Source of the DNA: Candidatus Omnitrophota bacterium
Lineage (GTDB): Bacteria > Omnitrophota > Gorgyraeia > Duberdicusellales > 4484-171
DNA: 64,000 nt
NCBI GenBank assembly: GCA_043815445.1
Contig: JBDRIY010000019.1
Location: 5,368 to 69,367 of the forward strand
Direction of reading: 5' to 3'
Position numbers and translations under genes: made by a program. This document shows positions 8,564 to 58,304 of the stretch, piece after piece (within the stretch, counting starts at the first letter, position 1; each line of letters begins with the position of its first letter). A model generated the notes under the pieces. The model was given only the letters and a program-made list of their open reading frames with translations. It searched no databases and had not been told where the DNA came from.

Positions 8564-8732
8564 AATTCTTTAAAAAATCTCAAATTCCAAGCATCAAATT
8601 ACAAATAAATCTCAAATCTCAAAATCCAAATTCCAATAGAAAGTTTCTTTATTTGGGATTTGAATATTGGAATTTATTTGTTATTTAGAATTTGTTATTT
8701 GGAATTTTATTTCTTATCTATAATAATATATC
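8564..8732. repeat. attccaa/ttggaat heptamer-built imperfect palindrome (family W, copy 1), in scpA leader
   Basis: Left arm (aaatctcaaattccaagcatcaaatt...ccaaattccaata) is the reverse complement of the right arm (tatttgggatttgaatattggaatttatttgttatttagaatttgttatttggaatt). It shares the core ttggaatttatttgt(t/g)atttggaatttgttatttggaatttcattt with 13494-13645, 18276-18470 and 58025-58304. Confidence 0.8.
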
Positions 8733-9779
8733 TCACAATCCCACTATCTCTTTAACTTCATCCAATGTTTGCGCGGCAGTTTCTTGGGCTTTTTTTCTGC
8801 CTTGTTCTAATATATCCTTTATATAATTCTTTTTGTTCAATATCTCTTGCTTTTTTGCCCTGCGAAGAACAATAAATTCTTCAAGAATTTTTACCAGCTC
8901 TTCTTTGCACTGGCGGCATCCTCTTTGAGCATTAATGCAATCTTTCTTAATTTGAGACAATTGGGGCTTTCCGTCAGAGGCGGATCCGTCTTCGGCGGAG
9001 AAAATAAAATAATAATCAAAAAGATTACAAACATCAGGATGCCCTGGGTCATTCCTTTTTTTTCTTGCCGGGTCGGTAAACATAGATAAAACTTTGCGGT
9101 TAAGTTCCTGACGGCTTTCATCAAGAGCAATATAATTTTGATAGCTTTTGCTCATTTTCCTTCCATCAAGGCCTAAAAAACGGGGAGTTGAAGCAAGGAT
9201 AGGTTTAGGCTCAACAAAAACTTTCTTTTTGTAAATAAAATGGAACTTGCGGACAATCTCCCGGCATAACTCTAAATGCGGAAGCTGGTCTTCACCTACC
9301 GGAACAGAATCAGCTTTATAGAGAAGGATATCCGAAGCTTGGAGAACGGGATAACCTAAGAAAGCGTAAGTATTTATCTCTTTATCTTTTAATTGAGCAA
9401 TCTGCTCTTTAAACGTTGGGCAGCGGTAAAGCCGGCTCAAAGGGACTAAAGCTGAAAGAATTGCCTCTAACTCTAAATGTTCAGGAACCTGAGACTGAAC
9501 AAAAATAACTGACTGATCAGGATCAATACCATAGCTTAACCAATCAGCCGCGTTATCGAAAATAGATTCTTTTATGATACCGGAATTTTTATATTCGCTC
9601 ATAAAAGCATGCCAGTCAGCAATCATAAAAAAGCATTTATACTCTTTTTGCAGCTTAGTCCAGTTCTCAAGCGCTCCCACCCAATGCCCTAGATGCAATT
9701 TACCTGTAGGCCGCATTCCGCTTAATATAATCTTCTTATCCATATTTTTCTTTAAAAATTCGAAATAATTTAAATTCAA
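8733..9779 (-). CDS. trpS: tryptophan--tRNA ligase
   Basis: Class I aaRS signatures: HIGH-like TGKLHLGHWVG and KMSKS; ~340 aa size typical of TrpS. Confidence 0.9.
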   Translation of the reverse strand: MNLNYFEFLKKNMDKKIILSGMRPTGKLHLGHWVGALENWTKLQKEYKCFFMIADWHAFMSEYKNSGIIKESIFDNAADWLSYGIDPDQSVIFVQSQVPEHLELEAILSALVPLSRLYRCPTFKEQIAQLKDKEINTYAFLGYPVLQASDILLYKADSVPVGEDQLPHLELCREIVRKFHFIYKKKVFVEPKPILASTPRFLGLDGRKMSKSYQNYIALDESRQELNRKVLSMFTDPARKKRNDPGHPDVCNLFDYYFIFSAEDGSASDGKPQLSQIKKDCINAQRGCRQCKEELVKILEEFIVLRRAKKQEILNKKNYIKDILEQGRKKAQETAAQTLDEVKEIVGL

Positions 9780-9896
9780 AACTCGAATATCGAAATCCGA
9801 AATGGTTCGACAAGCTCACCATTTCAAATTTCGGATTTCGTATTTCGAATTTTTATACATTTCGATATTCAGATTTCAGATTTATTATTAATATTT
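9780..9896. repeat. family C palindromic repeat (trpS leader)
   Basis: aaattcaaaactcgaatatcgaaatccgaaatggttcgacaagctcaccatttcaaatttcggatttcgtatttcgaattt; internally palindromic and matching 5600-5650 in inverse orientation. Confidence 0.75.
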
Positions 9897-11805
9897 TTAT
9901 TTCAATCTCCTTGCAATAATTTCTTCACTGTAAGCATCTATAAAATCTCCAGCCTGCATCTTATCGTAGCCTACACCTATTCCGCACTCAAAACCCTCAG
10001 CAACTTCTTTTACGTCGTCCTTAAACCTTTTTAAAGTTTTAATTTTTCCTTCAAAAATAATCTCATTAGCGCGCATAAGCTGTACGATTGAACCTCTGGT
10101 AATTTTTCCTTTTTCAACCATACATCCGGCTATTATACCGCTTTTAGAAAGTTTAAAAACCGCTTTAATCTTTGCTCGGCCGCAAAAGGTACGCTTAATC
10201 TGAGGAGTAAGCAAACCTTCTAAGGCTGCTTTAACATCATCAACAAGCTCATAAATTATCTGGTAAGACCTGGTTTCAATTCCTTTTTGCTTAGCCAAAT
10301 CTCTAACCTGAGCGCCTATATCAGCTTTAAACCCTACAATTATGGCATCAGTTACCTCAGCTAAAAGAATGTCTGAGGAATTGACAGCGCCCACACCCTT
10401 ATGAGTTATAACTAGATCAACTTCCTCAGAAGGAATCTTCCCCAAGGCGTCCTCTACCGCTTCCAGAGTTCCGCCTACATCCGCTTTTAGAATGATTTTT
10501 AGCTGCTTTGTGCTGCCTTCTTCTATTCTCTTATACAAATCTTCTAATTTAAAATGAGAAACCGGCACGAGTTTTTTTCTTTTATCGATTTCCCTTCTTT
10601 TTTCTACAATTTCTCTGGCGCTTTTTTCATTAGGAACTACTAATAACTGCTCTCCGGGATTAGGCACACCGTTTAAACCTAAAATCTCTACCGGAAAAGA
10701 GGGCCCAGCCAGCGGGCAATTATCGCCCCTATCATTATGCATTGCTTTTACCCTTCCCCAATAAAGGCCGCAAACGCACCAATCCCCTATTTTTATTACT
10801 CCTTCCTGAATTAGAGCAGCTATCAAAGGCCCTTTGCCTTTAGAAAGCCTTGCTTCAACAACAGCTCCCACAGCAGGCTTTTCATAATCAGCTTTAAGTT
10901 CCATTACATCGGCCTGGAGAACAATTAATTCTAAAAGCTCATCAATCTTTTCACCGGTTTTTGCTGAAACTCCTATAGTAATAGTTTTCCCTCCCCAGTC
11001 TTCAGGAACAAGCTCAGCCTTAGACAATTGCTGTTTAACCATATCTATATTAGCATTAGGCCGGTCAATTTTATTAATTGCCGCGATAATAGGAACTCCC
11101 GCGGCCCGGGCATGGTCAATTGCTTCTACTGTTTGAGGTTTAATTCCTTCATCAGCGGCAATCACTATAACAACAATGTCAGTAATATTAGCTCCTCTTG
11201 ACCGCATTGCTGTAAAAGTTTCATGGCCGGGAGTATCTAAAAAAGTAATTTTTCCCTTATCTAAAGTTACCTGATAAGCCCCCTATATGCTGAGTAATCC
11301 CTCCAGCTTCTTTGTCAACAATCTTGCTTTTCCTGATGCAGTCAAGGATACTCGTTTTCCCATGGTCAATATGGCCCATAAAAGTAACAATAGGAGCGCG
11401 TTCTTTCATATTTTTAGATTGGACTTTTAAAATTTCTTCTTCTTCGGTGAGTTTTTTCTTTAAATTAACCTTATAGCTATAGGCAATATCTGAAGCTATT
11501 TTTTCATTAAGGCTTTGATTTAAAGTAAAAAACTTACCTTGTTTTATCAGATCAGCTAAAAGTTCTGAAGATTTTTTATTTAATTTTACTGCCAGTTCTT
11601 TTACAGTTGTAGGGAAATCAATCTCTATAACGTTACTTTCAATTTCCTTTTTATCCAGTTCGCCAACCTCATGCTTGATAATCTCCGCGGTCTGGGCGTC
11701 TACACTGGACATATGATTTTTTACTGGAAATTTAAGGTTCTTAAGCTTTTTAATCAGCTCCTTACTATCTATCCCCAGCTCTTTAGCAAGTTCATGGATT
11801 CTCAT
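9897..11805 (-). CDS. infB: translation initiation factor IF-2, reading frame broken by a +1 frameshift at a C5 homopolymer (plus-strand 11279..11283)
   Basis: ORF 11257..11805 encodes the IF-2 N-domain and G1 motif [12 protein letters not shown], ending [18 protein letters not shown] 9897..11207 resumes at [30 protein letters not shown]. Deleting one G from the minus-strand GGGGG run restores the canonical connecting segment [24 protein letters not shown]. Confidence 0.85.
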
Positions 11806-13009: not shown

Positions 13010-13050
13010 AGTAATCAAAACATCCTGATTCTTACAGGATGCCTATTTTT
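13010..13050 (-). terminator. hairpin plus U-run overlapping the rimP stop codon (terminator or attenuator between rimP and nusA)
   Basis: catcctgattcttacaggatg hairpin at 13021-13041, followed by ttttgatt on the minus strand and cctattttttc on the plus strand. Confidence 0.4.
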
Positions 13051-13493
13051 TCTTTCCCTACCTTAATCTTACCAAAATCTATCTTTAAAACTTCTTTTTT
13101 ATTCAACAAAGACAATATATCTTCATTTACCCCTAAGACTTCTCCTTCAAAATAGGTTTTATCATTAACAGGCTCACTCAGCCATAAAAGTATTGTTCTT
13201 CCTTGGGCCCTTAAGAAATCTTTGCTACTCTTAAGCGGCCGGTCCAAGCCCGGAGAATTCACCTCTACCGTAAAATCATCGCCCAAAAGCCTACTTTCAT
13301 CTAAATAAGCAAATATACTTTTGTTAATTTTCGCGCAAACAATCACAGTTATTCCGCCCTGAGAATAATCTACGATACAGCGCGCGATATTCTTAGTCCG
13401 AGAAAAAAAAACTTTAAAGTCTATAAGCTCAGCACCCTCTGCCTCAACAATTTCTTCCACTTTAATTTTAACTTTTTCTTGATTGGTTAACAT
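13032..13493 (-). CDS. rimP: ribosome maturation factor RimP
   Basis: RimP-like sequence from MLTNQEKVKIKVEEIVEAEGAELIDF. The ORF-track start at 13547 runs into the attccaa repeat array, so I use the internal ATG at 13491-13493. Confidence 0.8.
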   Translation of the reverse strand: MLTNQEKVKIKVEEIVEAEGAELIDFKVFFSRTKNIARCIVDYSQGGITVIVCAKINKSIFAYLDESRLLGDDFTVEVNSPGLDRPLKSSKDFLRAQGRTILLWLSEPVNDKTYFEGEVLGVNEDILSLLNKKEVLKIDFGKIKVGKEKIGIL

Positions 13494-13645
13494 ATCTATC
13501 CTTCTAAAATTCCAAATCCCAAGCACCAAATTCCAAATAAATCTCAAATCTCAAAATCCAAATTCCAATAAAGAATTTCTCCGTTTGGAATTTGTATATT
13601 GGAATTTATTTGTGATTTGGAATTTGTTATTTGGAATTTCATTTC
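13494..13645. repeat. family W palindromic repeat, copy 2 (rimP leader)
   Basis: aaattccaaatcccaagcaccaaattccaaataaatctcaaatctcaaaatccaaattccaata...attggaatttatttgtgatttggaatttgttatttggaatttcatttc; near-identical segments to copies 1, 3 and 4. Confidence 0.8.
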
Positions 13646-14797
13646 TTATTCGCCTTTTAAGAATTTTATCAAAGCCTCTTTTTTAAAGCTTTCTTTCTCC
13701 CCTGTTTTCCTCACTTCCAAATCTATAGTTTTATCTTTTAAATACTTTTTACCCATAATCAATATGTAAGGATTTCCTATTAAATAAGCATCATTAAATT
13801 TAACTCCAGCGCCTGATTCTCTATCATCAATTAAAACAGAAAATCCTTGTTTTTCCAGGTTATCTCCCAAAATAAGTGCTTCCTTTAGCAGCTTTGAGTC
13901 CAAAACAACTAAGCTTAAATCAAAAGGACTAATATTTTTAGGCCAAACTAAACCTTTTTCATCCGAACTTACTTCGGCAACTGCTGAAAGTATCCTACTG
14001 ACGCCTATGCCATAGCAACCCATTATCACCGGCCCGCGCTCGCCTTTTTCATCAAGAAAAAACGCTTCCTGAGCTGATGAATACTTTGTGCCCAGCTTAA
14101 ATATATGCCCAATTTCAATCATCCTTTTTTCTTCAACAATATCCTCACCTATATCAGCCGGAACCATAAACTCATGTGAAAGGCCAGCCCCCATAAACCC
14201 TGGATCTGCTTTAAATTTCATACAATTAAGCCCGCAATCTTTAAATATATCTTCATAACAAGCAAGCATCTTTTCGTAGTTTTCATTCAAACCTTTTTCA
14301 TCTTTATCAAAACTGTAAGCATCTTTCATAATAAACTCACAGCTCCTCATAAGCCCAAAACGCGGCCTTAATTCATCTCTGAATTTAGTTTGTATTTGAT
14401 AGAGAATAAAAGGAAGCTGTTTATAGGAAGACAAATGACGGCGGACAAGCTCAGTGATTTCTTCTTCATGAGTAGGCCCTAAAACCAATTCTCTGCGCTT
14501 TCGATCTTTGAATTTAAACATAACCTCTTCTAAATCTTTATCCCGTCCGGTTTTTTTCCACATCTCTATAGGCTGTAAAGCGCTCATAAACAATTCTTGA
14601 GCGCCGTAAGAATTCATATGTTTCCTAATGATATTATTTATATTATTTAAAACCTTCCAGCCTAAAGGAAGATAAGAATATATTCCCGAAGAAATCATAG
14701 AAAGAAAACACCCCTGGAGCAAAAGCTTATGGCTCCTGCATTCAGCAATTTTTGGTGCTTCTCTTAAAGTAAAAATAAAACTCTTTGAGAATAACAT
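13646..14797 (-). CDS. proS: proline--tRNA ligase (short bacterial form without editing insertion)
   Basis: Class II aaRS motifs from MLFSKSFIFTLREAPK... The first 30 ORF-track codons are repeat-derived, so I use the ATG at 14795-14797. Confidence 0.85.
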   Translation of the reverse strand: MLFSKSFIFTLREAPKIAECRSHKLLLQGCFLSMISSGIYSYLPLGWKVLNNINNIIRKHMNSYGAQELFMSALQPIEMWKKTGRDKDLEEVMFKFKDRKRRELVLGPTHEEEITELVRRHLSSYKQLPFILYQIQTKFRDELRPRFGLMRSCEFIMKDAYSFDKDEKGLNENYEKMLACYEDIFKDCGLNCMKFKADPGFMGAGLSHEFMVPADIGEDIVEEKRMIEIGHIFKLGTKYSSAQEAFFLDEKGERGPVIMGCYGIGVSRILSAVAEVSSDEKGLVWPKNISPFDLSLVVLDSKLLKEALILGDNLEKQGFSVLIDDRESGAGVKFNDAYLIGNPYILIMGKKYLKDKTIDLEVRKTGEKESFKKEALIKFLKGE

Positions 14798-14819
14798 AAT
14801 TATATTATAAATAGATATC

Positions 14820-14942
14820 GTTATGCGTTGAAAGGTCGCGTAGCTGGAAACGGGCAACGTTAAACGTTGAACGTATTTTAGACGCAACCGATAGACGTAT
14901 GACGATTCGAGCTACGCAACCGAAAAACGGTTAACGCAACCC
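14820..14942. repeat. acgttga/gcaacg heptamer-built palindrome in proS leader
   Basis: gcgttgaaaggtcgcgtagctggaaacgggcaacgttaaacgttgaacgtattttagacgcaaccgatagacgtatgacgattcgagctacgcaaccgaaaaacggttaacgcaac. Confidence 0.7.
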
Positions 14943-16014: not shown

Positions 16015-17118
16015 CTACGGCAAAGCCTTTTCCTCGTTCTTCGTTGAAATATTCTTTCCGTTTTTTAAAATCTTAGGGCCAAACCTTAAAATATCATTAT
16101 AGAAAACAAATATAATCAGTAAAATAAGAAAAGTAAATCCTACGCGGGTTAAAATATCTTCTGTTTTTTCCCTTAAGGGTTTCTTTCGCATTTTCTCCAT
16201 AAAGAAAAAGAAAAGGTGTCCGCCGTCTAAGACAGGAATAGGAAATAAATTAACTATACATAAGCTTACACTTAAAACCGCCATAAGCTGTAGAACCGCT
16301 GTCCCTCCAATTTTAGCAGCTTCAGAAGTAATATAATAAATACCAATAGGCCCGGCCATAGCTTCTTTAAAAGGAATAAGCCCTAAAATAATAAAAACAA
16401 ATCCTTTAATGACAAGAAAAGTTAGATTAAACAAAGCTTGAGCGCCTTGAACAAAACCCCTAAAAAAACCATAGCTGATAATTTCAACCTCTGATGAAGC
16501 TGATATTCCTATCACCGATATATTTTTCTTTCTGCCAAAATCATCGATAATTTCCTTTTCACGCAAAGGAACTTCTATGGATATATTTTCTCCTTCTCTC
16601 TCAACTTCAAGATTAACCTTTTCTTTCGCGGTATAAATTATCCTTGCCATATCTACCCAGGTAGTAACATTTTTGTTATTTACCGCTAAAATTTTATCTC
16701 CTTCCTTAACACCGGCTTGAGCGGCAGGATAACCCTCCGAAACCTTTCCTACTACAGCTGCCGGATAAGAAAAGCCAACCATTGCTATAATCCAAAATAT
16801 AATTAAAGCTAATAAATAATTAAATAAAGGCCCCGCGAAAACAATTCTCATCCGCACGCCCGGAGCTTTAGAAAAAAACTCGTTGTTAAATCCTTTATGC
16901 TCAAGCCGGCTATCCCCCGCTAATTTTACATATCCGCCTAAAGGAAAAAGACAAACTGAAAACTCGGTTTCCCGTCCTTTTATCTTAAACAAGGCCGGGC
17001 CGAAACCAATAGCAAATTTTTCTACTTTAACTCCAGCTTGCTTAGCGGCAATAAAATGGCCTAATTCATGGATAACAACCAAAATACTAAAAACAATTAT
17101 TACGATTAAAACGCTCAT
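16015..17118 (-). CDS. rseP: RIP zinc metalloprotease RseP (site-2 protease)
   Basis: HELGHF zinc motif at the N-terminus, PDZ domain, multiple TM segments and the C-terminal LDGGH motif. Confidence 0.85.
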   Translation of the reverse strand: MSVLIVIIVFSILVVIHELGHFIAAKQAGVKVEKFAIGFGPALFKIKGRETEFSVCLFPLGGYVKLAGDSRLEHKGFNNEFFSKAPGVRMRIVFAGPLFNYLLALIIFWIIAMVGFSYPAAVVGKVSEGYPAAQAGVKEGDKILAVNNKNVTTWVDMARIIYTAKEKVNLEVEREGENISIEVPLREKEIIDDFGRKKNISVIGISASSEVEIISYGFFRGFVQGAQALFNLTFLVIKGFVFIILGLIPFKEAMAGPIGIYYITSEAAKIGGTAVLQLMAVLSVSLCIVNLFPIPVLDGGHLFFFFMEKMRKKPLREKTEDILTRVGFTFLILLIIFVFYNDILRFGPKILKNGKNISTKNEEKALP

Positions 17119-18275
17119 AATTTATTTAAATACTCCTTTGTTTTCTCCCTAGCCCAGCTATCCCAGAAAAAGATATCAGCCTCATTCTTTATTTTATTTT
17201 GAGGATAATGGCTATATATATATTCCACAGCTTTGTAAATATCAGAAAATTTTATCTTCTTTTTTAAAAAATAATCTATGGCTATTTCATCGCAAGCATT
17301 TAAAACTACGAGAGAATTATCCTTTTTTTTCGCGGCTTCTAAAACTATTTTTAGAAGAGGGTAACGATTATAATTTATGGGTTCAAAAGTATAAGAAAAA
17401 TTGTTTTTAAAATTAATGCCGCTGTTAAAATTACTCCTCTGAGGATAATACAGAGCAAAGGAAATCGGAACTTTCATGTCCGCGGGATAAATACAAGCAA
17501 ACAAAGTATTATCTTTACATTCAACCATAGCGTGAACCATAGATTCTTTATGTATCAAAATATTAATTTTCTCAAAAGCAAGGCCAAAGAAAAAATGAGT
17601 TTCAATAACTTCAAAACCTTTATTAACTAAGGTAGCGCTGTCAACAGTAATGCGCCTTCCCATATTCCAGTTAGGATGATCTAAAACCTTTTGGACGCTA
17701 ACCTTGGCAAAATCCCTTTTGCCGCAATTTGCCAGAGAACCTCCGGAAGCAGTAATATGAACCCTACGAAAACAATCGTTTGAATTCTGCCAGTTTTTAT
17801 TCATTTCAATGAGCTGAAAAAAAGCGTTTATTTCACTATCTACCGGTAAAATCTCAGTATTATATTTTTTCGCTTGCTTAAAGACTAAAGCGCCTGCTGT
17901 TACTATTGATTCTTTGTTAGCTAAGGCAATTCTTTTAGTATGCCTTATATTTATAAGTAAAGGCTTTAAACAAGAAATTCCTGAAATTGCCATAAGTGAA
18001 ATATCACAATCCAAAGCTGAAAACTCTTCTAAGCCTTCCTCTCCTTTGAATAACTTTATCCGCCCGGTTAACTCTTTTTGTAATTTTTTTGCCTGTTTTT
18101 GATCTCTTAAACAAACGTATAAAGGCTTAAATTCTTTTATTTGGCTTAAAAGAGTTTTTATATCCCTATCCGCGCAAAGGCCTAAAATCTTGAATTCCTT
18201 TCTATCCCGCCTTATTACTTCTAAAGCGCTTCTTCCTATTGAACCTGTTGAGCCGAATACTAAGACCTTTTTCAT
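17115..18275 (-). CDS. dxr: 1-deoxy-D-xylulose 5-phosphate reductoisomerase
   Basis: MKKVLVFGSTGSIGRSALEVI NADPH-binding N-terminus characteristic of Dxr; 386 aa. Confidence 0.9.
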   Translation of the reverse strand: MKKVLVFGSTGSIGRSALEVIRRDRKEFKILGLCADRDIKTLLSQIKEFKPLYVCLRDQKQAKKLQKELTGRIKLFKGEEGLEEFSALDCDISLMAISGISCLKPLLINIRHTKRIALANKESIVTAGALVFKQAKKYNTEILPVDSEINAFFQLIEMNKNWQNSNDCFRRVHITASGGSLANCGKRDFAKVSVQKVLDHPNWNMGRRITVDSATLVNKGFEVIETHFFFGLAFEKINILIHKESMVHAMVECKDNTLFACIYPADMKVPISFALYYPQRSNFNSGINFKNNFSYTFEPINYNRYPLLKIVLEAAKKKDNSLVVLNACDEIAIDYFLKKKIKFSDIYKAVEYIYSHYPQNKIKNEADIFFWDSWAREKTKEYLNKL

Positions 18276-18470
18276 AAATTAATAAGCTATTATTAAAATC
18301 CCAAATTTCAAGCACCAAATAACAAATAAGCTCCAAATTTCAAGCACCAAATTCCAAATAAATCTCAAATTTCAAATTCCAAAAATTCCCCATTGGAATT
18401 TGGATATTGAGTATTGGAATTTATTTGTTATTTGGAATTTGTTATTTGGAATTTCATTTTTATCTATGCC
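18276..18470. repeat. family W palindromic repeat, copy 3 (dxr leader)
   Basis: ccaaatttcaagcaccaaataacaaataagctccaaatttcaagcaccaaattccaaataaatctcaaatttcaaattccaaa...attggaatttatttgttatttggaatttgttatttggaatttcattt. Confidence 0.8.
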
Positions 18471-19274
18471 TTATCTCATCATAGTAACATATAAATACAA
18501 AATAGGGGCGGTAAAAATTAAGCTGTCAATAACGTCAAGAGCTCCCCCCATACCCCATAAGATTCTTCCTGAATCTTTTACCCCGCAGTCCCTTTTTATA
18601 AGAGATTCAAAAAGGTCCCCCATTTGAGATATTATAGCTAAAATAATTATTAAAAAAAACTTTTCCCAAAAATCAATGCTGTCTATAAATAAAGAAAATA
18701 TAAGCCCTACACTTAAACTGGTAAAAAAACCGCCCATGGAACCTTCTAATGATTTTTTAGGGCTTATTTTTTTAATAAGGGGAGTTTTTCCAAATTTTTT
18801 GCCCCATAAATAAGCGCCTACATCTGAAGATTTAGTGACTAGAACTAAGAACCCTGTCAGCATTGCCCCTTCAGGCAGCTGCCTCACTCTTATTAGAAAA
18901 CTAAAGCACCAGGAAATATAGATTACGCCGAATATCGTTGCTGATATTGAAAGAACTGAATGATGCGTTTCTTTTTTTCTAAACTCAAGAAGAAAAAGAA
19001 CAAATAACCCTATAATAACAAATAAAAACTGCCAACCTTCTTTTATAGGAAAACGAAAATAAATAGTTATAGGAATAAGTAAACCAAGTAAAAGGCCTAA
19101 GGGCTTAAATAGCCTAACTCCTTTTTTCTCTACCATATGGAAAAATTCATATAACCCCGCGAGGATAAGAAAACAGGTAGCTATACCGCATAAAGGATAA
19201 TAAATTACCGCGAACACAGCGCAAAAGCCTAAAACAGTCGCGGGAATAATTCTCTCATTCATATATTCCTCCAA
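18471..19274 (-). CDS. cdsA: phosphatidate cytidylyltransferase
   Basis: Polytopic membrane protein with the CTP_transf_1 signature SLEGSMGGFFTSL...GDLFESLIKRDCGVKDSG. Confidence 0.85.
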   Translation of the reverse strand: MEEYMNERIIPATVLGFCAVFAVIYYPLCGIATCFLILAGLYEFFHMVEKKGVRLFKPLGLLLGLLIPITIYFRFPIKEGWQFLFVIIGLFVLFLLEFRKKETHHSVLSISATIFGVIYISWCFSFLIRVRQLPEGAMLTGFLVLVTKSSDVGAYLWGKKFGKTPLIKKISPKKSLEGSMGGFFTSLSVGLIFSLFIDSIDFWEKFFLIIILAIISQMGDLFESLIKRDCGVKDSGRILWGMGGALDVIDSLIFTAPILYLYVTMMR

Positions 19275-23899: not shown

Positions 23900-24128
23900 C
23901 AACTCCAGTTAAATTTAAAAATTAAAATGCAAAAATCAAAACGACATATCAAAATTTAAAATGATTTAATATCTAATGTTTTCAATGCTTTTCAAACATA
24001 CGAAAAAATATAGGCTATTTTTTGCGGCTTAAAAAACATTTTTATTTTTAAATTGTCATTTTAATGTTTGATATTTAATTTTTGATTTTAGTTTTTCTAT
24101 CCGTCTGTATATGCGGCGGCTTATTTTT
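23900..24128. repeat. AT-rich aaaatg/attttga palindrome (family AT), comEC 3' side
   Basis: aaattaaaatgcaaaaatcaaaacgacatatcaaaatttaaaatgatttaat...aaattgtcattttaatgtttgatatttaatttttgattttag. It is homologous to 59085-59280 (...atttgtcattttgatatttaatttttaatttt). Confidence 0.65.
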
Positions 24129-25622
24129 TTATTCTACTATTTGAATCGCGGTTCTAAAATATCTTCGCGATAAAAATATAATGATGCTAAGAGCAAAATA
24201 ATATACAAATACGGCCCATGCCTCAAAAGTATAAGTGATAAAAGAAAAATTAATATGGCTTAAACTCCTGGTGAGAGCTATAAAATAAGAGATAACTGCC
24301 GATAGAATTTCTCCTATGCCTAAAGCCGCGAAAGTAAAGGGCGAAAAAATAATTAAAATAAAGTTGATTATAAGAATAAAAGTAAATAAAGGAATTAAAA
24401 TTATATTATAGAGCGGGCTTAAAATATACACTTTTCCAAAATAATATGAGACTAAGGGAGTTGAAAATACTCCGATAAAAATAGAACAGCTAAGAATCTG
24501 CTTCAAATAATTCAAAACCATATTTTTGGCTGGCCTTATATTAAAAATTTTAAGTCCTAAAATTATGGCAAAGCAGGCTGTAAATGACAACTGAAAACCT
24601 ACGCTAAAAAGTACTGAGGGATCGATCATGAGAGCGATTATTCCCGCCAAACCTAAAGAATTTAATAAATGGGCCTTTCTTTTGGCGAAAAAACCTAAAA
24701 CAAATACTGAATACATAATTGCCGCCCGCAAAGTAGAAGGGCTTATTCCGGTAAGCAAAGTATAAAACCAAAGGAAAATTAAAGAAATAATAAGGCGAAC
24801 CTCAAATTTCAGGCCAAAAAACCTTAAAATAAAAAATAAAATCAAAGAAGTAAGCCCTAAATGCAGGCCGCTTATAGCTAAAAAGTGGCTTGTCCCAGTG
24901 TCAGAAAAATACTTTTTTTCCTCACCCAAAAGCTCCCTTCTTCCCAAAAATACTGAGCTTAAAAACTTATACCCCTGAACACTGCAATTTTTCTTAAAAA
25001 CATTAAAAATATATAAGGCTGTATTTCGGGTAAAAGAGCTCCCTATCCCTCTGGGAAGTTCAACAATCGGCTCTTTGGCTTTAGCCCAAAGGTAATAAAC
25101 CCCGTTAGAGGCAATCCGCCTCGGGCGGATGCCGCGAAGCGGGCCTCTAACGGGGTAAAAAGACCTTTGCTGATAATCCTTTTTGATTAATTTTCCTCTA
25201 AATTGATAAGATTTCAAATATTCCATTGATTTAGAATAATCTCTAACTCTTACTTTTATTTTTAAAGGTAAAGAATTTACTTTTTGTACGCGGGCGGTAA
25301 AACTATTAGCCAAGCTTGACTCTTTAGGGAGGGAAATAACCTGCAAGCAAATATCATTTCTTTTATCTAAAAATTCTTCAACTCTGGAGAGATTAAAAGA
25401 ACTTATCAGGCAAGCGCCGATAAAGAAAAAAGAAACTAAAATAAAAACATCAGAAACTAAAAACTTGTTTTTTTTATAAAAAAAATAAACAGCTCCTGAA
25501 GAAAATAAACAAAGGAAAAAACTTAAAAAATAAAAAGAAAACCCTCGGCCAAAAATAACCCCTAACCCCAAAGCCAAAAAAACCCAAAAATTCAACAACC
25601 CCGCCAAACACCTCTTTTCCAT
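24129..25622 (-). CDS. comEC: ComEC/Rec2-family DNA internalisation competence protein (no C-terminal metallo-beta-lactamase domain)
   Basis: Polytopic membrane protein with the competence-domain signature FSDTGTSHFLAISGLHLGL. Confidence 0.8.
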   Translation of the reverse strand: MEKRCLAGLLNFWVFLALGLGVIFGRGFSFYFLSFFLCLFSSGAVYFFYKKNKFLVSDVFILVSFFFIGACLISSFNLSRVEEFLDKRNDICLQVISLPKESSLANSFTARVQKVNSLPLKIKVRVRDYSKSMEYLKSYQFRGKLIKKDYQQRSFYPVRGPLRGIRPRRIASNGVYYLWAKAKEPIVELPRGIGSSFTRNTALYIFNVFKKNCSVQGYKFLSSVFLGRRELLGEEKKYFSDTGTSHFLAISGLHLGLTSLILFFILRFFGLKFEVRLIISLIFLWFYTLLTGISPSTLRAAIMYSVFVLGFFAKRKAHLLNSLGLAGIIALMIDPSVLFSVGFQLSFTACFAIILGLKIFNIRPAKNMVLNYLKQILSCSIFIGVFSTPLVSYYFGKVYILSPLYNIILIPLFTFILIINFILIIFSPFTFAALGIGEILSAVISYFIALTRSLSHINFSFITYTFEAWAVFVYYFALSIIIFLSRRYFRTAIQIVE

Positions 25623-26268: not shown

Positions 26269-26383
26269 ATTCTCGATTCTCGATTCTCGATTCTCGATTC
26301 TCGATACTAGATACTAGATGCTCGATATATTACGAATTATCGAGAATCGTGTATCGAGTATCGAGAATTATCGAGTATCATTT
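26269..26383. repeat. family S tandem-palindrome (leuS leader / comEA start)
   Basis: (ttctcga)x4 ctcgatactagatactagatgctcgatatattacgaattatcgagaatcgtgtatcgagtatcgagaattatcgagtatc: four perfect 7-bp tandem units followed by their inverted complement units. Confidence 0.8.
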
Positions 26384-36000: not shown

Positions 36001-36269
36001 CCCTCAAGAGGAAGGCTTTCAAGCTCTTCTACCACGTCATATACATTTTTTTCGCTAAACTTATATATTTGCCCATAATACTCATATCCGTTTATTGCCA
36101 TAAGCGCTTTTGCCGCGATTTTTTTAAGTATAAATTTTGAAGCATCGCCATTACGCTGACGCATCACCTCCTCAGATGAAATATAGGAATACCCCATGCT
36201 TATTAGTACTTCAACAAAAGGAAGTTGCGATTGCCTTATTTCATCAAAATCAGCTTTAATATTATTCAT
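33066..36269 (-). CDS. hsdR: type I restriction enzyme R subunit
   Basis: 1067 aa; N-terminal PD-(D/E)xK nuclease DIVCFVNGIPFVVIENKK, SF2 motif I HTQGSGKSLTMV and DEAH box VLIDEAHR. Confidence 0.95.
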   Translation of the reverse strand: MNNIKADFDEIRQSQLPFVEVLISMGYSYISSEEVMRQRNGDASKFILKKIAAKALMAINGYEYYGQIYKFSEKNVYDVVEELESLPLEGLIDTSRLVYNMIMPKTGGKTIKVFHEGKNISRSFRFIDFAHPENNVFHVTVEYEANGKRHIRPDIVCFVNGIPFVVIENKKAGVDIKEAIFQMSRNQRAEYCPKFFVYSQLLIATNGSEFRYGTTLTQAKFYSIWKEKGIAKKELESYVKRYIEKPLDSSAYSQVREDLGVSQDYNQRKTRLATEQDRGIVSLLAPKRLLDFTKNYIIYDAGIKKIMRYQQYFAIAKMLMRVEEEQKGVEGNKRCGGLLWHTQGSGKSLTMVLFVKALIEHPYILNPRVIIVTDRKDLDKQIAETFKNCGLKKGVIKATSGQHLLDLIQEKNLKVITTLVHKFDSVSKKRMNFRDTDKNIFVLIDEAHRTQTGIANLEMNRVMPNACYIGFTGTPLLKKDRESWKKFGGYIDKYTIDDALKDEIILPLIYEGRYVDLIENKEQIDRRVDAIIKDLDDKAKRELQKLVNTKIIKDNPQRIADIAVDIENHYCGQFQGTGLKAQIVSPSKFSAVLMQKAFESSGKIQTAIVISGENGIVDEDDAHKKEVIEYLDKTKEKYRSLESYEKDVIDSFKYNPDGIEILIVVDKLLTGFDAPCNTVLYLAKDLRDHSLLQAIARVNRLYDNKELPKTAGFIIDYSENAKNIDTAMKLFGNYDEEDVKGALIDVGEKINELEQSYAEVHDLFKEIKNKSDSEEYLTVLGGDTKEDGEQRRVVFYEVLNKFLRNFNECLALQDFVKEFKHIDVYKKEIKKMVEIRKAASLRYADKVDLTKYKRSLVSILDDYVDAQGVELLTKQINITDSEQFEKAIESLGSNKSKAEAIAAQTERTIKEKYNSDPEFYKRFSEKIHEILEKMRQEKMADIAALKELKDIKNSVVQKRDESIPEKISQKEGADIFYRNLCPIFQSHKLNRPDFEQIILDIYSILHQESIVDWYKNAEVKRIMRNKIDDYVYDVVKGERGIDLSNEEMKDIIDKAMELAENNYEIFK

Positions 36270-42413: not shown

Positions 42414-42415
42414 AG

Positions 42416-43526: not shown

Positions 43527-43600
43527 TGGTGGAGCCGACGGGAATCGAACCCGTGATACCACAATGCCATTGTGGTGTGATCCCGCTTCACCACGGCCCC
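43527..43600 (-). tRNA. tRNA-Ala (anticodon GGC)
   Basis: Reverse complement folds as GGGGCCG-TG-GTGA-AGCGGGA-TCAC-A-CCACA-ATGGCAT-TGTGG-TATC-ACGGG-TTCGATT-CCCGT-CGGCTCC-A-CCA. It has the G3:U70 Ala identity pair, anticodon GGC and an encoded CCA. Confidence 0.85.
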
Positions 43601-43812
43601 GCAGAAACAAGAAGATTCTTCGCTCTGCTCAGGATTAATTCAACTAAGGGCTTTTGTGCGCAGAGTTTATCCTGAGTATTTCGAAGGGCTTCAAAAGCCT
43701 AAGTTTCATTGAATATTACCATTCATAAAGGAAATTGTCAATTGACAAAGAAAATTAGTAATGTTATGATTGAAGAAATCGTATCAATATTACTTTAATA
43801 TTATTACATTTT

Positions 43813-43895
43813 GCCGGAGTGGCGGAATGGCAGACGCGCTGGATTCAAAATCCAGTCTCCGCAAGGAGGTGAGGGTTCAAGTCCCTCCTCCGGCA
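43813..43895 (+). tRNA. tRNA-Leu (anticodon CAA)
   Basis: GCCGGAG acceptor, anticodon stem CTGGA/TCCAG with loop TTCAAAA, long variable arm and T-loop GTTCAAGTC; no CCA encoded. Confidence 0.85.
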
Positions 43896-43904
43896 TTAAA
43901 TTAA

Positions 43905-45842
43905 ATGGCACACTTCCAACTAGATAGATTTCAAGAAGAGGCGATTGAATATTCCCGCAAAGAGCATTCAGTCATTGTTAGCGCGCCTACTGGAGCGGGA
44001 AAAACTCTTATTGCTGAACATATAATTCAAGATTGTATAGACAATAATAAAGGTGTTATCTACACCGCTCCTATAAAAGCTCTTAGTAATCAAAAATTCC
44101 GTGACTTCTGCAAAAAATACCCTCAGAAAACCGGAATCCTTACCGGCGACGTAAACATAAATCGAGACGCGCCTATTTTAATTATGACTACGGAAATATT
44201 CCGTAATGCCATCATGGTTGATCCTCAAAGCTTTGAGCACCGGGAATGGGTTATCTTCGACGAAATTCATTATCTTGACGATATTGAACGGGGCACAGTT
44301 TGGGAAGAAGCAATTATTCTTTTACCTCCTAAAATGAAAATGCTGGCTTTAAGCGCTACTATTCCTAATCTTAAAGAACTGGTTTGCTGGCTTGAACAAA
44401 TCCACAACTTTCCCATAAAAACAATAATAGAAAAGGACCGCCCTGTTCCCCTTCACTTTTTGTTTCACTGCAATAATGAAATATTTTATAACTTTGAGGA
44501 ATTAAACAAATCTGACCAGTTGCGAAAAAGCCTTAAAAATCCTTCTTATCAAGAAAGTTATTTTTTTTCCAAACCTAACCAGATAAAAACTCTCTTAGAG
44601 AATATTAATGAGAATAAGGCTTCTCCTTGCGTTTATTTTTCTTTTTCGCGAAAAAGGTGTGAAATTCTAGCTCAGGAAGCCGGATATTTTAACTTCCTTT
44701 CTCCCAATGAAAAAAAGAAAATAACTGAAACTTTTGATCAACTTTTAGACAAATTTGATATCTCCGGTTCTCCTCACATAAGCTTTCTGGCATCCTTAAT
44801 TAATAAAGGTATTGCTTACCACCACGCCGGGCTTCTGCCCTCTTTAAAAGAAATAATTGAAAGACTGTTTACAACCGGCTTAATAAAACTAATTTTTACC
44901 ACTGAAACCTTTGCCTTAGGGATAAATATGCCGGCAAGAACAGTTGTCTTTGATACTATGAGCAAATTTTACGGAAGCTATCACGGTTATCTTAAAACCC
45001 GCGACTTTTACCAGATGGCCGGCAGAGCCGGAAGACGGGGTATTGATAAAGAAGGGTTTGTATTTTCTCGAATAAACCCTTCTCATATAGACATTAAATC
45101 TTTAGAAAAAATAATCTACGGAGACTACGAACCAATCAAAAGCCAGCTTAATTCCTGTTACGCGACTATCTTAAACCTTTACAGAATAATGGGAGATAAA
45201 ATTTACGATATTTATCCTAAATCATTTCACTTTTATCAAAGCAAAGCCTGGGAAAAAAAACAAGTTTTAGGGCTGCTTAAAAGAAAAATCGCTCTGCTGG
45301 AAGAGCTGGGCTACATTTCCGGTTTAAATATAACTCCTAAAGCTGAGCTTGCCGCTAAAGTTTATAGTTTTGAGTTGGCTATTGGAGAATTATTTAATCA
45401 AGGTTTCTTAGACAACCTCGATGAAGAAATCTTATTTATATTCATAATTGCTCTAGTATATGAACCGAGAAAAGGAGAAAAAAGGCCGAAATTAAATAAA
45501 AGGATAAGAGCCTTAAAAAGAGACTTGGATCGGTTTGTCCGAATTATACATGATACAGAAAAAAAATTTCATATTCTTCCCTTAAGCAAAAAGTTTTTCT
45601 TTTATCTTGCTGATGCTTCCAAAATGTGGTTTGAGGGGGCTGAGTTTTCCAGCTTAAAAAAATTCTCCAGCGTTGATGAAGGCGAGATAGTCCGTTACTT
45701 TAGAATGGGAATACAAGTGCTAAGAGAAATGTCTTCCTCCCCGATAATAAACCCTTATTTAAGAAAGAAAATTCTAAACTGCTTGAGAAAAGTAAACCGC
45801 GGCGTAGTAGACGCCCGTCAACAGTTAACCCAGGAAATCTAA
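43905..45842 (+). CDS. Ski2-like DEAD/DEAH-box (SF2) helicase
   Basis: Q-motif-like FQLDRFQEEAI, Walker A APTGAGKT, DEIH box (VIFDEIHYL), SAT motif LSATIPN and helicase C HHAGL...QMAGRAGRRG. Confidence 0.8.
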   Translation: MAHFQLDRFQEEAIEYSRKEHSVIVSAPTGAGKTLIAEHIIQDCIDNNKGVIYTAPIKALSNQKFRDFCKKYPQKTGILTGDVNINRDAPILIMTTEIFRNAIMVDPQSFEHREWVIFDEIHYLDDIERGTVWEEAIILLPPKMKMLALSATIPNLKELVCWLEQIHNFPIKTIIEKDRPVPLHFLFHCNNEIFYNFEELNKSDQLRKSLKNPSYQESYFFSKPNQIKTLLENINENKASPCVYFSFSRKRCEILAQEAGYFNFLSPNEKKKITETFDQLLDKFDISGSPHISFLASLINKGIAYHHAGLLPSLKEIIERLFTTGLIKLIFTTETFALGINMPARTVVFDTMSKFYGSYHGYLKTRDFYQMAGRAGRRGIDKEGFVFSRINPSHIDIKSLEKIIYGDYEPIKSQLNSCYATILNLYRIMGDKIYDIYPKSFHFYQSKAWEKKQVLGLLKRKIALLEELGYISGLNITPKAELAAKVYSFELAIGELFNQGFLDNLDEEILFIFIIALVYEPRKGEKRPKLNKRIRALKRDLDRFVRIIHDTEKKFHILPLSKKFFFYLADASKMWFEGAEFSSLKKFSSVDEGEIVRYFRMGIQVLREMSSSPIINPYLRKKILNCLRKVNRGVVDARQQLTQEI

Positions 45843-50720: not shown

Positions 50721-50945
50721 CTTTGCACCTTCTCGTATAATATATTTAAATAACCAATAAAAATGAATAACCAAGAAACAAGATACAAGATACAAACAAA
50801 TTCCAATCACCAATAATCAATCACCAAACAATTTAATTTGTTGTATTCTTTGGTTATTGGAATTTGATTTCATTGGTTATTGTTTGGTTATTGTATCTTG
50901 GTGTTTGGTTATTTTTCATTTTACTCCATTACTTTAATCCGCGTC
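50721..50945. repeat. family Y palindromic repeat, second copy (thrC leader)
   Basis: aataaccaataaaaatgaataaccaagaaacaagatacaagatacaaacaaattccaatcaccaataatcaatcaccaaac...ttggttattggaatttgatttcattggttattgtttggttattgtatcttggtg. Confidence 0.75.
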
Positions 50946-56603: not shown

Positions 56604-56677
56604 AATTTACTCAAATTCCTTAATATTATTTTACCACAAAATGATACATTCAACAGGAACAATTGTCAAGAAAAAAA

Positions 56678-56760: not shown

Positions 56761-56785
56761 ATATTTCAATTTTATATTATAAAAA

Positions 56786-56858: not shown

Positions 56859-56859
56859 A

Positions 56860-57717
56860 TTATTTACTTTTCTTTATTGCCTCAGGCAAGTATTCAATTA
56901 CGTCTGAAGCGATAAGACAATTTTGAGTTTTATCCTTTACGGCTAAATCAGCAGATAGCCCGTGTAAATAAACTCCGAATTTCGCGGCCTCAAAACAACT
57001 TAACCCCTGAGAAACTAAACCGGAAATCATTCCTGCTAAAACGTCTCCTGTGCCGGCTGTTGCCATACCTGGATTCCCGGTTGTATTTTTATAGAGCTTT
57101 TTACCGTCACTTACCAAAGTGTGCCAACCCTTAAGGACAAGAGTTAGATTATATCTGAGAGCAAACTTTTTGACAAGTTCTTTTCTTCTCTTTCCAATCT
57201 CGCTCTTGTCTATTTTTATCAGCCGGGAAAATTCGCCCGGATGCGGAGTTAAGATAAGCTTACTTGTCTTTCTTTTATTTAAAATATCTATATTTGAAGC
57301 CAAAGCGGTTATTCCATCAGCATCAACTATTATAGGCTTATCTATTTCTTTTATTATCTTAATAGCTAAATTTTGAGTACCAAGTTTAAGCCCCGCCCCC
57401 GGCCCTAAAACAATAACATCAATTTTATCTAAAATATCAATAACCTTCTCGAAAGCCCCTAAAGCAAGGCTGTCTTCAGCTTCTTCCAAAGGTAAACTCA
57501 TCACTTCAGTAAGCTTAATTTCAAGAATACTATTTAAGCTTCGAGGTACTCCCGCTGTTACCAGCCCTGCTCCTATCCTTAAACCTGCTTTAGCCGCGAG
57601 GCATACCGCTCCGGTTAAGCCTGGTGAGCCTCCTAAAACTAAAATATGTCCGTAATCCCCTTTATGGGTATCAGATTTTCTTTTGAGCAACCGCGCAGGC
57701 AACCGCATAATCTTCAA
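56860..57717 (-). CDS. ADP-dependent NAD(P)H-hydrate dehydratase (YjeF C-terminal/Nnr family)
   Basis: GDYGHILVLGGSPGLTGAVCLAAKAGLRIGAG and C-terminal GNPGMATAGTGDVLAG motifs. Confidence 0.85.
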   Translation of the reverse strand: MKIMRLPARLLKRKSDTHKGDYGHILVLGGSPGLTGAVCLAAKAGLRIGAGLVTAGVPRSLNSILEIKLTEVMSLPLEEAEDSLALGAFEKVIDILDKIDVIVLGPGAGLKLGTQNLAIKIIKEIDKPIIVDADGITALASNIDILNKRKTSKLILTPHPGEFSRLIKIDKSEIGKRRKELVKKFALRYNLTLVLKGWHTLVSDGKKLYKNTTGNPGMATAGTGDVLAGMISGLVSQGLSCFEAAKFGVYLHGLSADLAVKDKTQNCLIASDVIEYLPEAIKKSK

Positions 57718-58024
57718 TATGAGTTATAGAAAGAAAAATGTCTATATTTATATTTTTTTTGAACTTACAATAAGGCGCGCCATTGGCTTTATTAAGTATT
57801 AAGATATCAGTTAAGGCGAGAGGCTGTTCTTTAGAGATAGCTTTTATTACCGCTTCTTTAGCGGCAAAGCGGGCCGCGATACGCTGATAATACATCTTAG
57901 CCTGAGGAATATTCTTAAGTTCTTCATGATTAAACACACGCTCAAGAAACCTCTCCCCCAATTTCTCTATAGAACTTTTAATCTTTTCTATTTTTATTAT
58001 ATCTATTCCTACACCAATAATCAT
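57671..58024 (-). CDS. acpS: holo-[acyl-carrier-protein] synthase
   Basis: 117 aa; MIIGVGIDIIKIEKI N-terminus and 4'-phosphopantetheinyl transferase fold. Confidence 0.85.
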   Translation of the reverse strand: MIIGVGIDIIKIEKIKSSIEKLGERFLERVFNHEELKNIPQAKMYYQRIAARFAAKEAVIKAISKEQPLALTDILILNKANGAPYCKFKKNINIDIFLSITHIEDYAVACAVAQKKI

Positions 58025-58304
58025 AATTAATTATTTCTAAAATTCCTAATCGGCCTAATTACTCTAATTTCTAACCGTCAGGCCTACTTGGTCAAATTCC
58101 AAAATATAATATATTAAAAATTAAAATTCCAAGCTCCAAGCACCAAATCCCAAATAAATTCCAATAATCAAATTCCAAACAAAGAATTCTTTGTTTCGAT
58201 CATTGGAGCTTTGGTAATTGGAATTTATTTGTCCTTTGGAATTTGTTATTTGGAATTTCATTTCTTTAGGTTAATTAGAGCAATTAGAAGTTATTAATTG
58301 AACC
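58025..58304. repeat. family W palindromic repeat, copy 4 (pdxJ leader)
   Basis: attccaagctccaagcaccaaatcccaaataaattccaataatcaaattccaaac...ggtaattggaatttatttgtcctttggaatttgttatttggaatttcatttc. Confidence 0.8.

Follow-up and report, generated by a model that had tools for sequence, protein, structure and literature searches.

We have completed a computational analysis of a 64,000-nucleotide (nt) stretch of DNA from a Candidatus Omnitrophota bacterium (contig JBDRIY010000019.1, referred to here as the window), and our analyses have identified in it four copies of W, a non-coding, imperfect palindrome of ~130–180 bp. W-like palindromes are also present in more than 10 bacterial phyla, and this cross-phylum family is directly observed. 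W is probably a mobile hairpin repeat resembling the REP sequences (repetitive extragenic palindromes), the MITEs (miniature inverted-repeat transposable elements) and the SPRITE repeats, which is dispersed, co-transcribed with its neighbours and limited to generic effects on mRNA. An earlier sequence-only reading of this DNA had described the repeated core and palindrome, which are borne out by our work, and had taken them for a shared regulatory element of four operons or for one recently spread element, with a gene placement and spacing that are not as it gave them. The four copies in the window are as follows:

W copy 1: 8573–8713, + strand (left arm to right arm, by covariance model), trpS-like/scpA junction; core 8666–8713
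W copy 2: 13503–13645, + strand, class II aminoacyl-tRNA synthetase/rimP junction; core 13598–13645
W copy 3: 18285–18465, + strand, cdsA/dxr junction; core 18413–18460
W copy 4: 58122–58264, + strand, pdxJ/acpS junction; core 58217–58264

Four Copies of a Long Imperfect Palindrome

The near-identical core noted previously is 48 nt long and is found four times on the + strand with 0–2 mismatches, while 100 shuffles yielded no match. The sequence TTGGAATTT has 29 occurrences in the window versus 3.4 expected. Each core belongs, as the right arm, to a long and imperfect inverted repeat, the arms of which are 56–73 nt in length and 71–75% complementary. In a multiple alignment of the four copies, the left arm is as conserved as the core, and the pairwise identity is 78–89% over 136–154 nt. 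When the window was searched with the covariance model R1, the W-level matches were exactly these four copies (121–143 bits on the + strand and 77–101 bits on the − strand), whereas the other palindromes in the window scored 22–71 bits with no strand preference. The individual scores on the + and − strands were 121.4 and 77.3 bits for copy 1, 143.5 and 101.5 bits for copy 2, and 129.5 and 91.1 bits for copy 4; copy 3 scored 127.2 bits for positions 18326–18457. Because both arms are conserved in all four copies and the model is specific for them, W represents a repeat family, and its separation by R1 from the other palindromes indicates that it is a well-defined family within a broader class.

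W arms are strung together from 7-nt units, which on the + strand are classed as A/C-only in the left arm (AAATTCC, AAATCCC, AAGCACC, AAATAAA and similar units) and as G/T-only in the right arm (GGAATTT, GTTATTT, GTGATTT and similar units), and therefore either strand reads as an A/C arm followed by a G/U arm. Seven is the best period in 13 of the 31 intergenic gaps, including all four that contain W, for which the period-7 score is 0.51–0.52 (copies 1–3) and 0.42 (copy 4). The left arm of copy 3 carries an extra duplicated module (18285–18325; AAATCCCAAATTTCAAGCACCAAATAACAAATAAGCTCC) with no partner in the right arm, and hence the arms are evidently able to grow by module duplication. Copy 4 is enclosed by a further inverted repeat:

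Outer inverted repeat around W copy 4: 58025–58299, no strand assigned; arms 58025–58069 and 58266–58299, unrelated to W

The arms of this outer repeat pair in the predicted fold, which results in nested hairpins, and its palindrome has no further copy in the window, where the arm sequence occurs once. Given this nesting, copy 4 may have been inserted into the loop of an older hairpin.

The RNA folds of copies 1–4 have energies of −31.4 (z −4.0), −46 (z −6.6), −39.3 (z −5.1) and −46.5 kcal/mol (z −6.0), respectively, and over all folds the range is −31 to −46.5 kcal/mol with z from −3.8 to −7.7. The folds of the two strands are of similar stability, for which reason a strand-specific function deduced from folding was rejected. 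Nearly all of the mismatches between the A/C and G/T arms are non-wobble on both strands, the exception being a conserved G·U at alignment columns 19/177, and thus wobble pairs are of little help in assigning the strand. In all four copies, a run of 4–6 U follows the A-U-rich stem on the transcribed strand. A possible small gene, a 31-codon open reading frame (ORF) in copy 2 that begins at the ATG of GAAATGAAATTCC, was also rejected: copy 1 has ATA at this position, and the ORF is therefore not conserved. Only tRNAs in the window reach the gathering score of Rfam 15, and a permissive Rfam search gave sub-threshold matches (12–25 bits), mostly to microRNA hairpins and to a few snoRNA and small RNA models.

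Empty Sites in Related Omnitrophota

The window was compared with 21-kb syntenic loci from relatives whose contigs encode a Dxr that is 77, 68, and 67% identical. These relatives have retained the arrangement uppS-cdsA-dxr-rseP-ispG-...-class II synthetase-rimP-nusA-infB-trpS-like-scpA, and a search of their syntenic loci with R1 found no W anywhere. The spacers at the four junctions are as follows:

cdsA–dxr: 3, 55, and 8 nt in the relatives; 195 nt in the window
class II synthetase–rimP: overlapping in the relatives; 152 nt in the window
trpS-like–scpA: overlapping or 10 nt in the relatives; 169 nt in the window
pdxJ–acpS: 0 nt in a distant relative (locus L128, PdxJ 47% identical); 280 nt in the window

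All three junctions that could be compared in the syntenic relatives are empty, and the fourth is empty in the distant relative; W is likewise absent upstream of the orthologous genes in loci L121–L125 and L128. A search with PdxJ for closer relatives gave no record by lookup and the one relative with 47% identity in a metagenome scan. Since the syntenic relatives lack W and their genes overlap or lie close together at these places, the four W copies represent lineage-specific insertions in the junctions of conserved operons. At one of these junctions, the C-terminus of the class II synthetase in the window is 3–4 residues shorter than in the relatives, and its TAA stop codon abuts W. A different situation is seen at the boundary of infB and the trpS-like gene, which holds 7-nt-unit sequence in all three lineages, each from another unit family; it forms palindromes in the window and in L124, and in L122 the units are of the A/C type and a clear G/T arm is lacking.

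Distribution of W Across Phyla

A 20-mer from the core (GAATTTGTTATTTGGAATTT) has at least 115 matching stretches in a collection with one genome per species, where, according to our own calculation, chance alone would give fewer than about 10. The matches include Bacteroidota, among them isolates (viz. Chitinophaga japonensis, Lacinutrix, Maribacter, and Salinimicrobium), many lineages of Patescibacteria, Omnitrophota, Aminicenantes/Acidobacteria and Desulfobacterota, with others in Calditrichia, KSB1, Planctomycetota, Nitrospiraceae, Elusimicrobia, Stahlbacteria, Ignavibacteria, and Gammaproteobacteria. The taxon labels of metagenome-assembled genomes (MAGs) are those of their depositors, yet isolates and contigs of 0.2–2 Mb from several phyla carry W. 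Among the 118 matches listed, a complementary A/C arm is located within 220 nt to the left in 43 and to the right in only 8. Whole elements are 70–86% identical to the window copies over 88–196 nt, with coding flanks that show no similarity, and the identity across phyla is about equal to that between most of the window copies. Additional copies without an exact match to the 20-mer are found by R1, and in Patescibacteria they number up to three per 8 kb.

The GC content of W is 20–38% in surroundings of 32–65% GC, and the GC-rich hosts include an Aminicenantes MAG (62–65% GC) with four copies as well as Uhrbacteria (61%) and Acidobacteria (56%) contigs. Two IMG/VR contigs (L116, 2112–2254; L120, 10475–10617) carry a 143-nt W of 25% GC that scores 116.5 bits. 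It is located between two co-directional tail genes in the structural module (56% GC) of a tailed phage, where the upstream stop codon overlaps the W end, and it is a compositionally foreign insertion in a virus. Phages as the main vehicle of W were nevertheless rejected, as only 5 (right-arm probe) and 2 (left-arm probe) viral contigs match.

W units also occur in other arrangements. In two Salinimicrobium isolates (L052, 3640–3705; L086, 425–490), which represent two species, a short W-type hairpin of 66 nt separates two tRNA genes at a shared position, within surrounding sequence that is 90% identical over 284 nt. In four loci from Flavobacteriia and Saprospiraceae (L005, L103, L106, and L113), non-palindromic tandem arrays of GGAATTT/GTTATTT are found directly beside start codons, and hence W units also occur in Bacteroidota as one-sided arrays.

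Conserved Unit Order and Fixed Mismatches

The order of the units in the left arm across loci is AAATTCC-AAATnCC-AAGCACC-AAATnnC-AAATAAA, and AAGCA(C/T)C is present as unit 3 in 29 of 35 elements from the matches listed. Each left arm, which played no part in the selection of loci, was compared with the reverse complement of its own right arm, and two mismatched places were found to recur across phyla, viz. AAAT(C/T)CC opposite AAATAAC and AAGCACC opposite AAATTCC. In an alignment of 17 sequences from at least seven phyla, 80.5% of the cells pair, four columns are mismatched in 16–17 of the 17 sequences, and one G·U pair is kept in 15 of 17. Covariation in this alignment does not exceed that of shuffles (355 of 500 reach it), and changes on both sides are seen in 2 of 35 pairs. 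A conserved RNA structure was therefore rejected as the basis of the stem; with fixed mismatches and no covariation, the pairing follows from the conserved sequence and the mismatches are a signature of the family. The conserved asymmetry of the arms favours common descent, or sequence-specific recognition, over repeated convergent growth.

Orientation, Neighbours, and Element Ends

Among the loci retrieved, W lies between co-directional genes in one orientation in 15 elements (13 genomes) and in the other in 9 elements (7 genomes). The sequence-only reading had proposed that a random orientation relative to genes throughout the genome would point to a neutral mobile repeat, and the occurrence of both orientations essentially corresponds to this. 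No protein family recurs within 3 kb of the elements, as an all-against-all BLASTP of 1,200 flanking ORFs gave no family in more than 4 loci, and no RAYT-like gene and no recurrent flanking gene were seen beside W in the 115 loci listed. Of the 47 element ends measured, about 17 are no more than 6 nt away from a stop codon, and W itself can supply a TAA through its A/T-rich ends (TTAAAT...ATTTAA).

Many elements have differing GC-rich hairpins at their apex, and in three Bacteroidota loci (L011, L105, and L010) a canonical terminator hairpin, which is GC-rich, is enclosed between short W arms. Outer inverted repeats around W score above the 99th percentile of mismatched-flank controls in 6 of 40 loci, and 11 of 40 reach this level or come within one point of it (score ≥10). 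This layered architecture suggests insertion into hairpin loops.

The outer sequences themselves vary with the host. Outer repeats enclose W in L020, L054, and L068 (Aminicenantes UBA2199), L025 (Acidobacteria), and L021, L061, and L098 (Patescibacteria); examples are GCAATACGAAGAC...GTCTTCGTATTGC and GCGTGACAAGG...CCTTGTCACGC. The outer arms in Patescibacteria (CACCTCGCTrCGCTCGG-like) are alike across three different MAGs. In six loci from Desulfobacterota MAGs (L067, L074, L075, L076, L079, and L112), a conserved module of ~30 nt (CCACTAACTCAAATACTTCGTGAACGGATAC) follows the right end of W and has an inverted partner to the left of W, and it is located downstream of unrelated genes. Because this module and its partner flank W, the repeat unit in those genomes is larger than W.

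W as a Probable Mobile Hairpin Repeat

The sequence comparisons above are most consistent with a mobile repeat that would spread by copy-and-paste and would have landed in four tight junctions inside conserved operons of this Omnitrophota lineage. At copy 2, the insertion would have shortened the upstream reading frame, which now ends at the TAA abutting W. W would be co-transcribed with its neighbours, because essential downstream genes (dxr and rimP-nusA-infB) must be expressed, and its transcript is predicted to form an imperfect A-U-rich hairpin of ~55–65 bp ending in a short U run. In this way, W may uncouple two formerly overlapping cistrons and may serve as a leaky terminator, as a substrate for RNase III or as a barrier to 3'-exonucleases, as proposed for REP, ERIC, BOX, and SPRITE repeats, for which generic effects on mRNA have been suggested (reviewed in PMC3184786). 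The movement of W may involve recognition of the hairpin or insertion into hairpin loops rather than transposition by terminal inverted repeats, which fits better because the conserved part of W is its internal arms with their fixed mismatches and not its outer ends. The spread of one element that the sequence-only reading had offered as its second option is thus supported; its "recent" holds only in a relative sense, as the copies differ by 11–22% and the family extends far beyond this genome.

A number of observations weigh against W being a simple mobile repeat. No target-site duplication is visible at the four window copies or in 40 loci, where the limits of the junctions are not fixed without a close empty site; the nearest empty site is in a genome 77% identical in Dxr, a distance from which the exact insertion junctions are unreadable. 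Neither a partner transposase with terminal repeats nor an autonomous version of W was found; for the latter, the regular-expression scan for arms around a gene was too permissive to discriminate. Conservation is seen in the internal arms, the outer ends varying from lineage to lineage, and host-specific outer inverted repeats surround about one quarter of the elements; a classical MITE shows the opposite pattern, its termini being the conserved part. A simple terminator scan made no call at copies 1–3, the range that was scanned. Lastly, the orientation of W is uniform within each of the six genomes with at least two observations, a small sample, and this uniformity, like the recurrence of the same mismatches across phyla, suggests a constraint or function beyond that of a neutral parasite. 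The uniform orientation may also be due to a founder effect or to strand-coupled copying.

Comparison with Known Repeats

W shares many characteristics with the bacterial MITEs (viz. Correia/NEMIS, ERIC/IRU, RUP, Nezha, and RPE; PMC3184786). Like W, these are non-coding, intergenic, multi-copy elements of 100–200 bp that fold into long hairpins, are (as predicted for W) co-transcribed with neighbouring genes, vary in presence or absence between related genomes and can be nested. Dispersed copies and empty sites in relatives, both typical of MITEs, are found for W; terminal inverted repeats are not, its ends being A/T-rich and ill-defined. MITEs also have target-site duplications and cognate transposases, and each is restricted to a genus or family, whereas W has conserved internal arms, lineage-specific outer flanks, 7-nt units and a distribution over more than 10 phyla, with no duplication or partner detected.

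The REP sequences, together with the BIME and REPIN arrangements that are mobilized by RAYT transposases (PMC3116915, PMC3733652), resemble W in being extragenic palindromes often situated just past stop codons. They also form imperfect hairpins in which fixed mismatches could aid recognition, and they have been proposed to stabilize mRNA or terminate transcription. However, REPs are 20–40 nt long and GC-rich and bear a GTAG or CGTC tag, whereas the arms of W are 55–70 nt with a GC content of 20–38% and carry no tag. The SPRITE repeats are likewise mobile, have a transcript resembling a terminator hairpin and share a modular build from short sub-units (BOX), but their compact GC-rich stem with a U tract, confined to one genus, differs from the long A-U stem with internal loops of W.

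A third group of similar sequences is the heptanucleotide simple repeats. The short tandemly repeated repetitive (STRR) heptamers of cyanobacteria include CCCCAGT, TTGGTCA, and CAACAGT, and TTGGTCA-like units are present at the apex of many W-type elements. The STRR sequences, the TAACTGA repeats and the repeats of Mrazek share with W the 7-nt unit, an intergenic position beside start or stop codons and a patchy distribution across phyla that suggests horizontal spread by no known mechanism. TAACTGA repeats occur in Beggiatoaceae, Cyanobacteria, and five Bacteroidetes; a link of these repeats to S1, Csp or CsrA binding has tentatively been made, and a single inverted case was noted among 170 repeat sets (MacGregor, PMC4679880). 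Heptanucleotide repeats are tandem direct copies of one unit; W, in contrast, consists of different units in a fixed order, arranged in two inverted arms, and its homology across phyla extends over whole elements. No description of W was found when the open literature was searched with exact sequences and with the concept of heptamers in inverted repeats.

Alternative Explanations

An extension of the mobile-repeat interpretation, which we put forward tentatively, is that W is the first recognized member of a pan-bacterial family of hairpins built from 7-nt "words". The word order and the loops (AAATCCC-AAGCACC opposite GGAATTT-GTTATTT) would form a recognition code, read by a putative hairpin-specific mobilizing enzyme or by a binder of 7-nt single strands such as a cold-shock-domain protein. 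Such elements would spread between phyla, including their phages, by insertion into hairpin loops at gene ends, and would serve as portable terminators/antiterminators tunable by protein.

It is also conceivable, though unlikely, that W is not a parasite and represents a selected, portable RNA module, i.e., a bidirectional terminator/antiterminator whose T/U-rich 7-nt units are bound by a conserved protein. Occupancy of the G/U arm would then decide between hairpin formation and read-through by the polymerase, with cold-shock-domain proteins and ribosomal protein S1 as candidates. Cold-shock-domain proteins bind T-rich stretches of about seven nucleotides and antiterminate by melting hairpins. 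This explanation would account for the 7-nt phasing and the order of A/C arm and G/T arm in every palindrome family of the window (except the ATTCTCG element described below), and for the retention of sequence and fixed mismatches across phyla in hosts of 32–65% GC. The Bacteroidota loci in which short W arms embrace a canonical terminator agree with it, as do the operon boundary of infB and the trpS-like gene, with its 7-nt palindrome (window and L124) or A/C-type units (L122), and the S1, Csp or CsrA binding proposed for TAACTGA repeats (MacGregor, 2015; PMC4679880). However, the stem shows no compensatory covariation above shuffled controls, W is dispensable in the relatives that lack it at the same junctions, its orientation relative to transcription varies between genomes, and the units of the different families (e.g., ATTCTCG and GGAATTT) are very different in sequence.

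A role of W as DNA appears improbable. W could provide a cruciform or bent site for nucleoid, topoisomerase or replication proteins, or a signal for recombination or uptake; some REP/BIME elements of E. coli are binding sites for gyrase and IHF. The equal quality of the hairpin on both strands and the same reading from either strand accord with such a role. The uniform orientation in six genomes, one of them that of the window with its constant GC skew, could reflect the direction of replication, and A-tracts placed 7 bp apart would come back into phase every 21 bp, or two helical turns. On the other hand, we have seen no regularity of spacing along the chromosome and found no associated protein, all four copies are in transcribed gene junctions, and imperfect AT-rich palindromes with fixed mismatches would be expected to extrude poorly as cruciforms.

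We consider it highly improbable that the W copies are convergent products of mutation, in which slippage expands the 7-nt units and template switching at hairpins creates the palindromes. Among the long simple repeats of many prokaryotes, heptanucleotides are indeed the commonest class (Mrazek, 2007), and polymerase slippage is Mrazek's proposal for their expansion, both as cited in PMC4679880. The coexistence of many unit families in the window, the duplicated module of copy 3 and the one-sided Bacteroidota arrays are in line with such growth. Convergence is nonetheless difficult to reconcile with a non-repeating unit order that recurs in loci selected by the right arm only (unit 3 as given above), with a left arm that departs from the right arm at the same two places (conserved in 16–17 of 17 sequences), with whole elements that align across phyla at 73–86% identity, or with a W that stays AT-rich inside genomes and a phage of 55–65% GC.

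Flanking Genes and the Proposed Regulon

The genes adjoining the W copies in the window, for which overlapping ORFs on the opposite strand were dropped from the gene map, are as follows:

scpA: 7853–8563, − strand, downstream of W copy 1; Pfam SMC_ScpA (E 4e-41)
trpS-like class I Trp/Tyr-type aminoacyl-tRNA synthetase: 8733–9779, − strand, upstream of W copy 1; Pfam tRNA-synt_1b (E 1e-60)
rimP: 13032–13493, − strand, downstream of W copy 2, first of rimP-nusA-infB; Pfam RimP_N and RimP C-terminal domain
class II aminoacyl-tRNA synthetase: 13646–14887, − strand, upstream of W copy 2; tRNA-synt_2b and HGTP_anticodon
dxr: 17115–18275, − strand, downstream of W copy 3; Pfam DXP reductoisomerase domains
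cdsA: 18471–19274, − strand, upstream of W copy 3; Pfam CTP_transf_1
acpS: 57671–58024, − strand, downstream of W copy 4; Pfam ACPS
pdxJ: 58305–59018, − strand, upstream of W copy 4; Pfam PdxJ (E 1e-91)

Copy 4, described earlier as upstream of pdxJ, is thus downstream of this gene and upstream of acpS, which was identified by Pfam. Similarly, the core had been placed 10–40 bp before the start codon of the next gene, but it instead adjoins the stop codon of the upstream gene, at distances of 19, 0, 10, and 40 nt for copies 1–4 (in copy 2, it directly abuts the synthetase stop codon at 13646–13648). The start codon of the downstream gene is 100–230 nt from the core and 9–17 nt (copies 1–3) or ~97 nt (copy 4) from the left arm. 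The description of the loci as four unrelated operons is misleading in that cdsA-dxr, class II synthetase-rimP, trpS-like-scpA, and pdxJ-acpS adjoin in conserved gene strings elsewhere. The copies do all lie on the same side relative to the genes; however, this shared orientation is uninformative, because 58 of the 59 retained gene-like ORFs of the window are on the − strand, with constant GC skew.

That W is a shared promoter, operator or 5'-untranslated-region element co-regulating scpA, rimP, dxr, and pdxJ/acpS is hardly credible and is already largely refuted: an outward-facing promoter is conceivable given that essential downstream genes must stay expressed, and Neisseria Correia elements carry one (PMC3184786), but W is missing from the orthologous junctions of relatives, its core is beside the upstream stop codon and distant from the start codon, copies elsewhere flank unrelated genes, convergent genes, tRNA genes and a phage tail module, and no −35/−10 pair of the sigma-70 type was found on the gene strand inside copies 1–3 (the scanned range). 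The promoter-like hits in the scanned region, for which the scan was of the sigma-70 type only, number 35 versus 32.5 expected from shuffles, and hence they are not enriched.

Other Palindromes and Genes of the Window

At least six further palindrome families in the window share the 7-nt phasing and are built of other units (viz. TTGGTTA/TTGTATC, CGAAATC, ATTCTCG, AAAATGC, and TTAGCAA). Most of them keep the order of A/C arm followed by G/T arm; the ATTCTCG element runs from pyrimidine-rich to purine-rich instead. No strand is assigned to the palindromes listed here:

4568–4747: TTGGTTA/TTGTATC palindrome, between trmD and rplS; R1 57–60 bits, no strand preference
5485–5655: CGAAATC-unit palindrome with apex AATGACCAAAA; R1 40–44 bits
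9769–9855: CGAAAT-unit palindrome, infB to trpS-like junction
23910–24090: palindrome, A-rich then T-rich, with AAAATGC-type units; by inverted repeat and fold, not among the R1 matches
26269–26373: ATTCTCG heptamer palindrome, with the strongest 7-nt period in the window (0.72)
50763–50916: TTGGTTA/TTGTATC palindrome, second copy, between hom (homoserine dehydrogenase) and the PALP (thrC-like) gene; R1 67–71 bits
54272–54328: further 7-nt-phased palindrome, among those with other units
59092–59210: AAAATGC/AAAATGA-unit palindrome, second of its type; by inverted repeat, fold and R1

Two of these palindromes are also located inside conserved operons, viz. trmD-rplS and hom-thrC-like.

The Dxr protein of the window has a counterpart with 100% identity at NCBI, encoded by a Candidatus Omnitrophota MAG. 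The infB gene is split by a +1 frameshift in a G run (ATAGGGGGCTTATCAG; window 11180–11300, − strand) into ORFs at 9897–11207 and 11257–11805, while in the relatives it encodes a single protein of 635 amino acids that reads through ...QHMGAYQV...; the frameshift is probably a homopolymer error of assembly or sequencing, and otherwise a pseudogene or a programmed shift. The sole + strand gene encodes a Ski2-like DEAD/DSHCT helicase (43905–45842), between tRNA-Ala and tRNA-Leu genes (region 43527–45842). A type I restriction R subunit (region 33066–36269) and a ComEC competence protein (region 24129–25622) are also encoded in the window.

Significance of the W Family

For this Omnitrophota lineage, the results presented here remove a false regulon. 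The genes scpA, rimP, dxr, and acpS have no common switch; what they share is a parasite-like insertion that split genes which formerly overlapped or abutted. W elements may also break assemblies and inflate the apparent "intergenic" space of compact genomes.

REPs, MITEs, BOX and similar small repeats of bacteria normally do not extend beyond one genus or family, and W does. The sequence, the low GC content and even the mismatches of this non-coding element of ~140 nt are maintained across Omnitrophota, many Patescibacteria, Acidobacteriota/Aminicenantes, Desulfobacterota, Bacteroidota, Planctomycetota, Elusimicrobia, Gammaproteobacteria, and a GC-rich phage, and this pattern points to either very frequent transfer of tiny DNA elements across phyla or a common recognition machinery. 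The covariance model of W can be run over all genomes and provides a handle on the long-unexplained excess of heptanucleotide repeats in prokaryotes, and correlating the occurrence of W with gene content would parallel the way in which RAYTs were tied to REPs.

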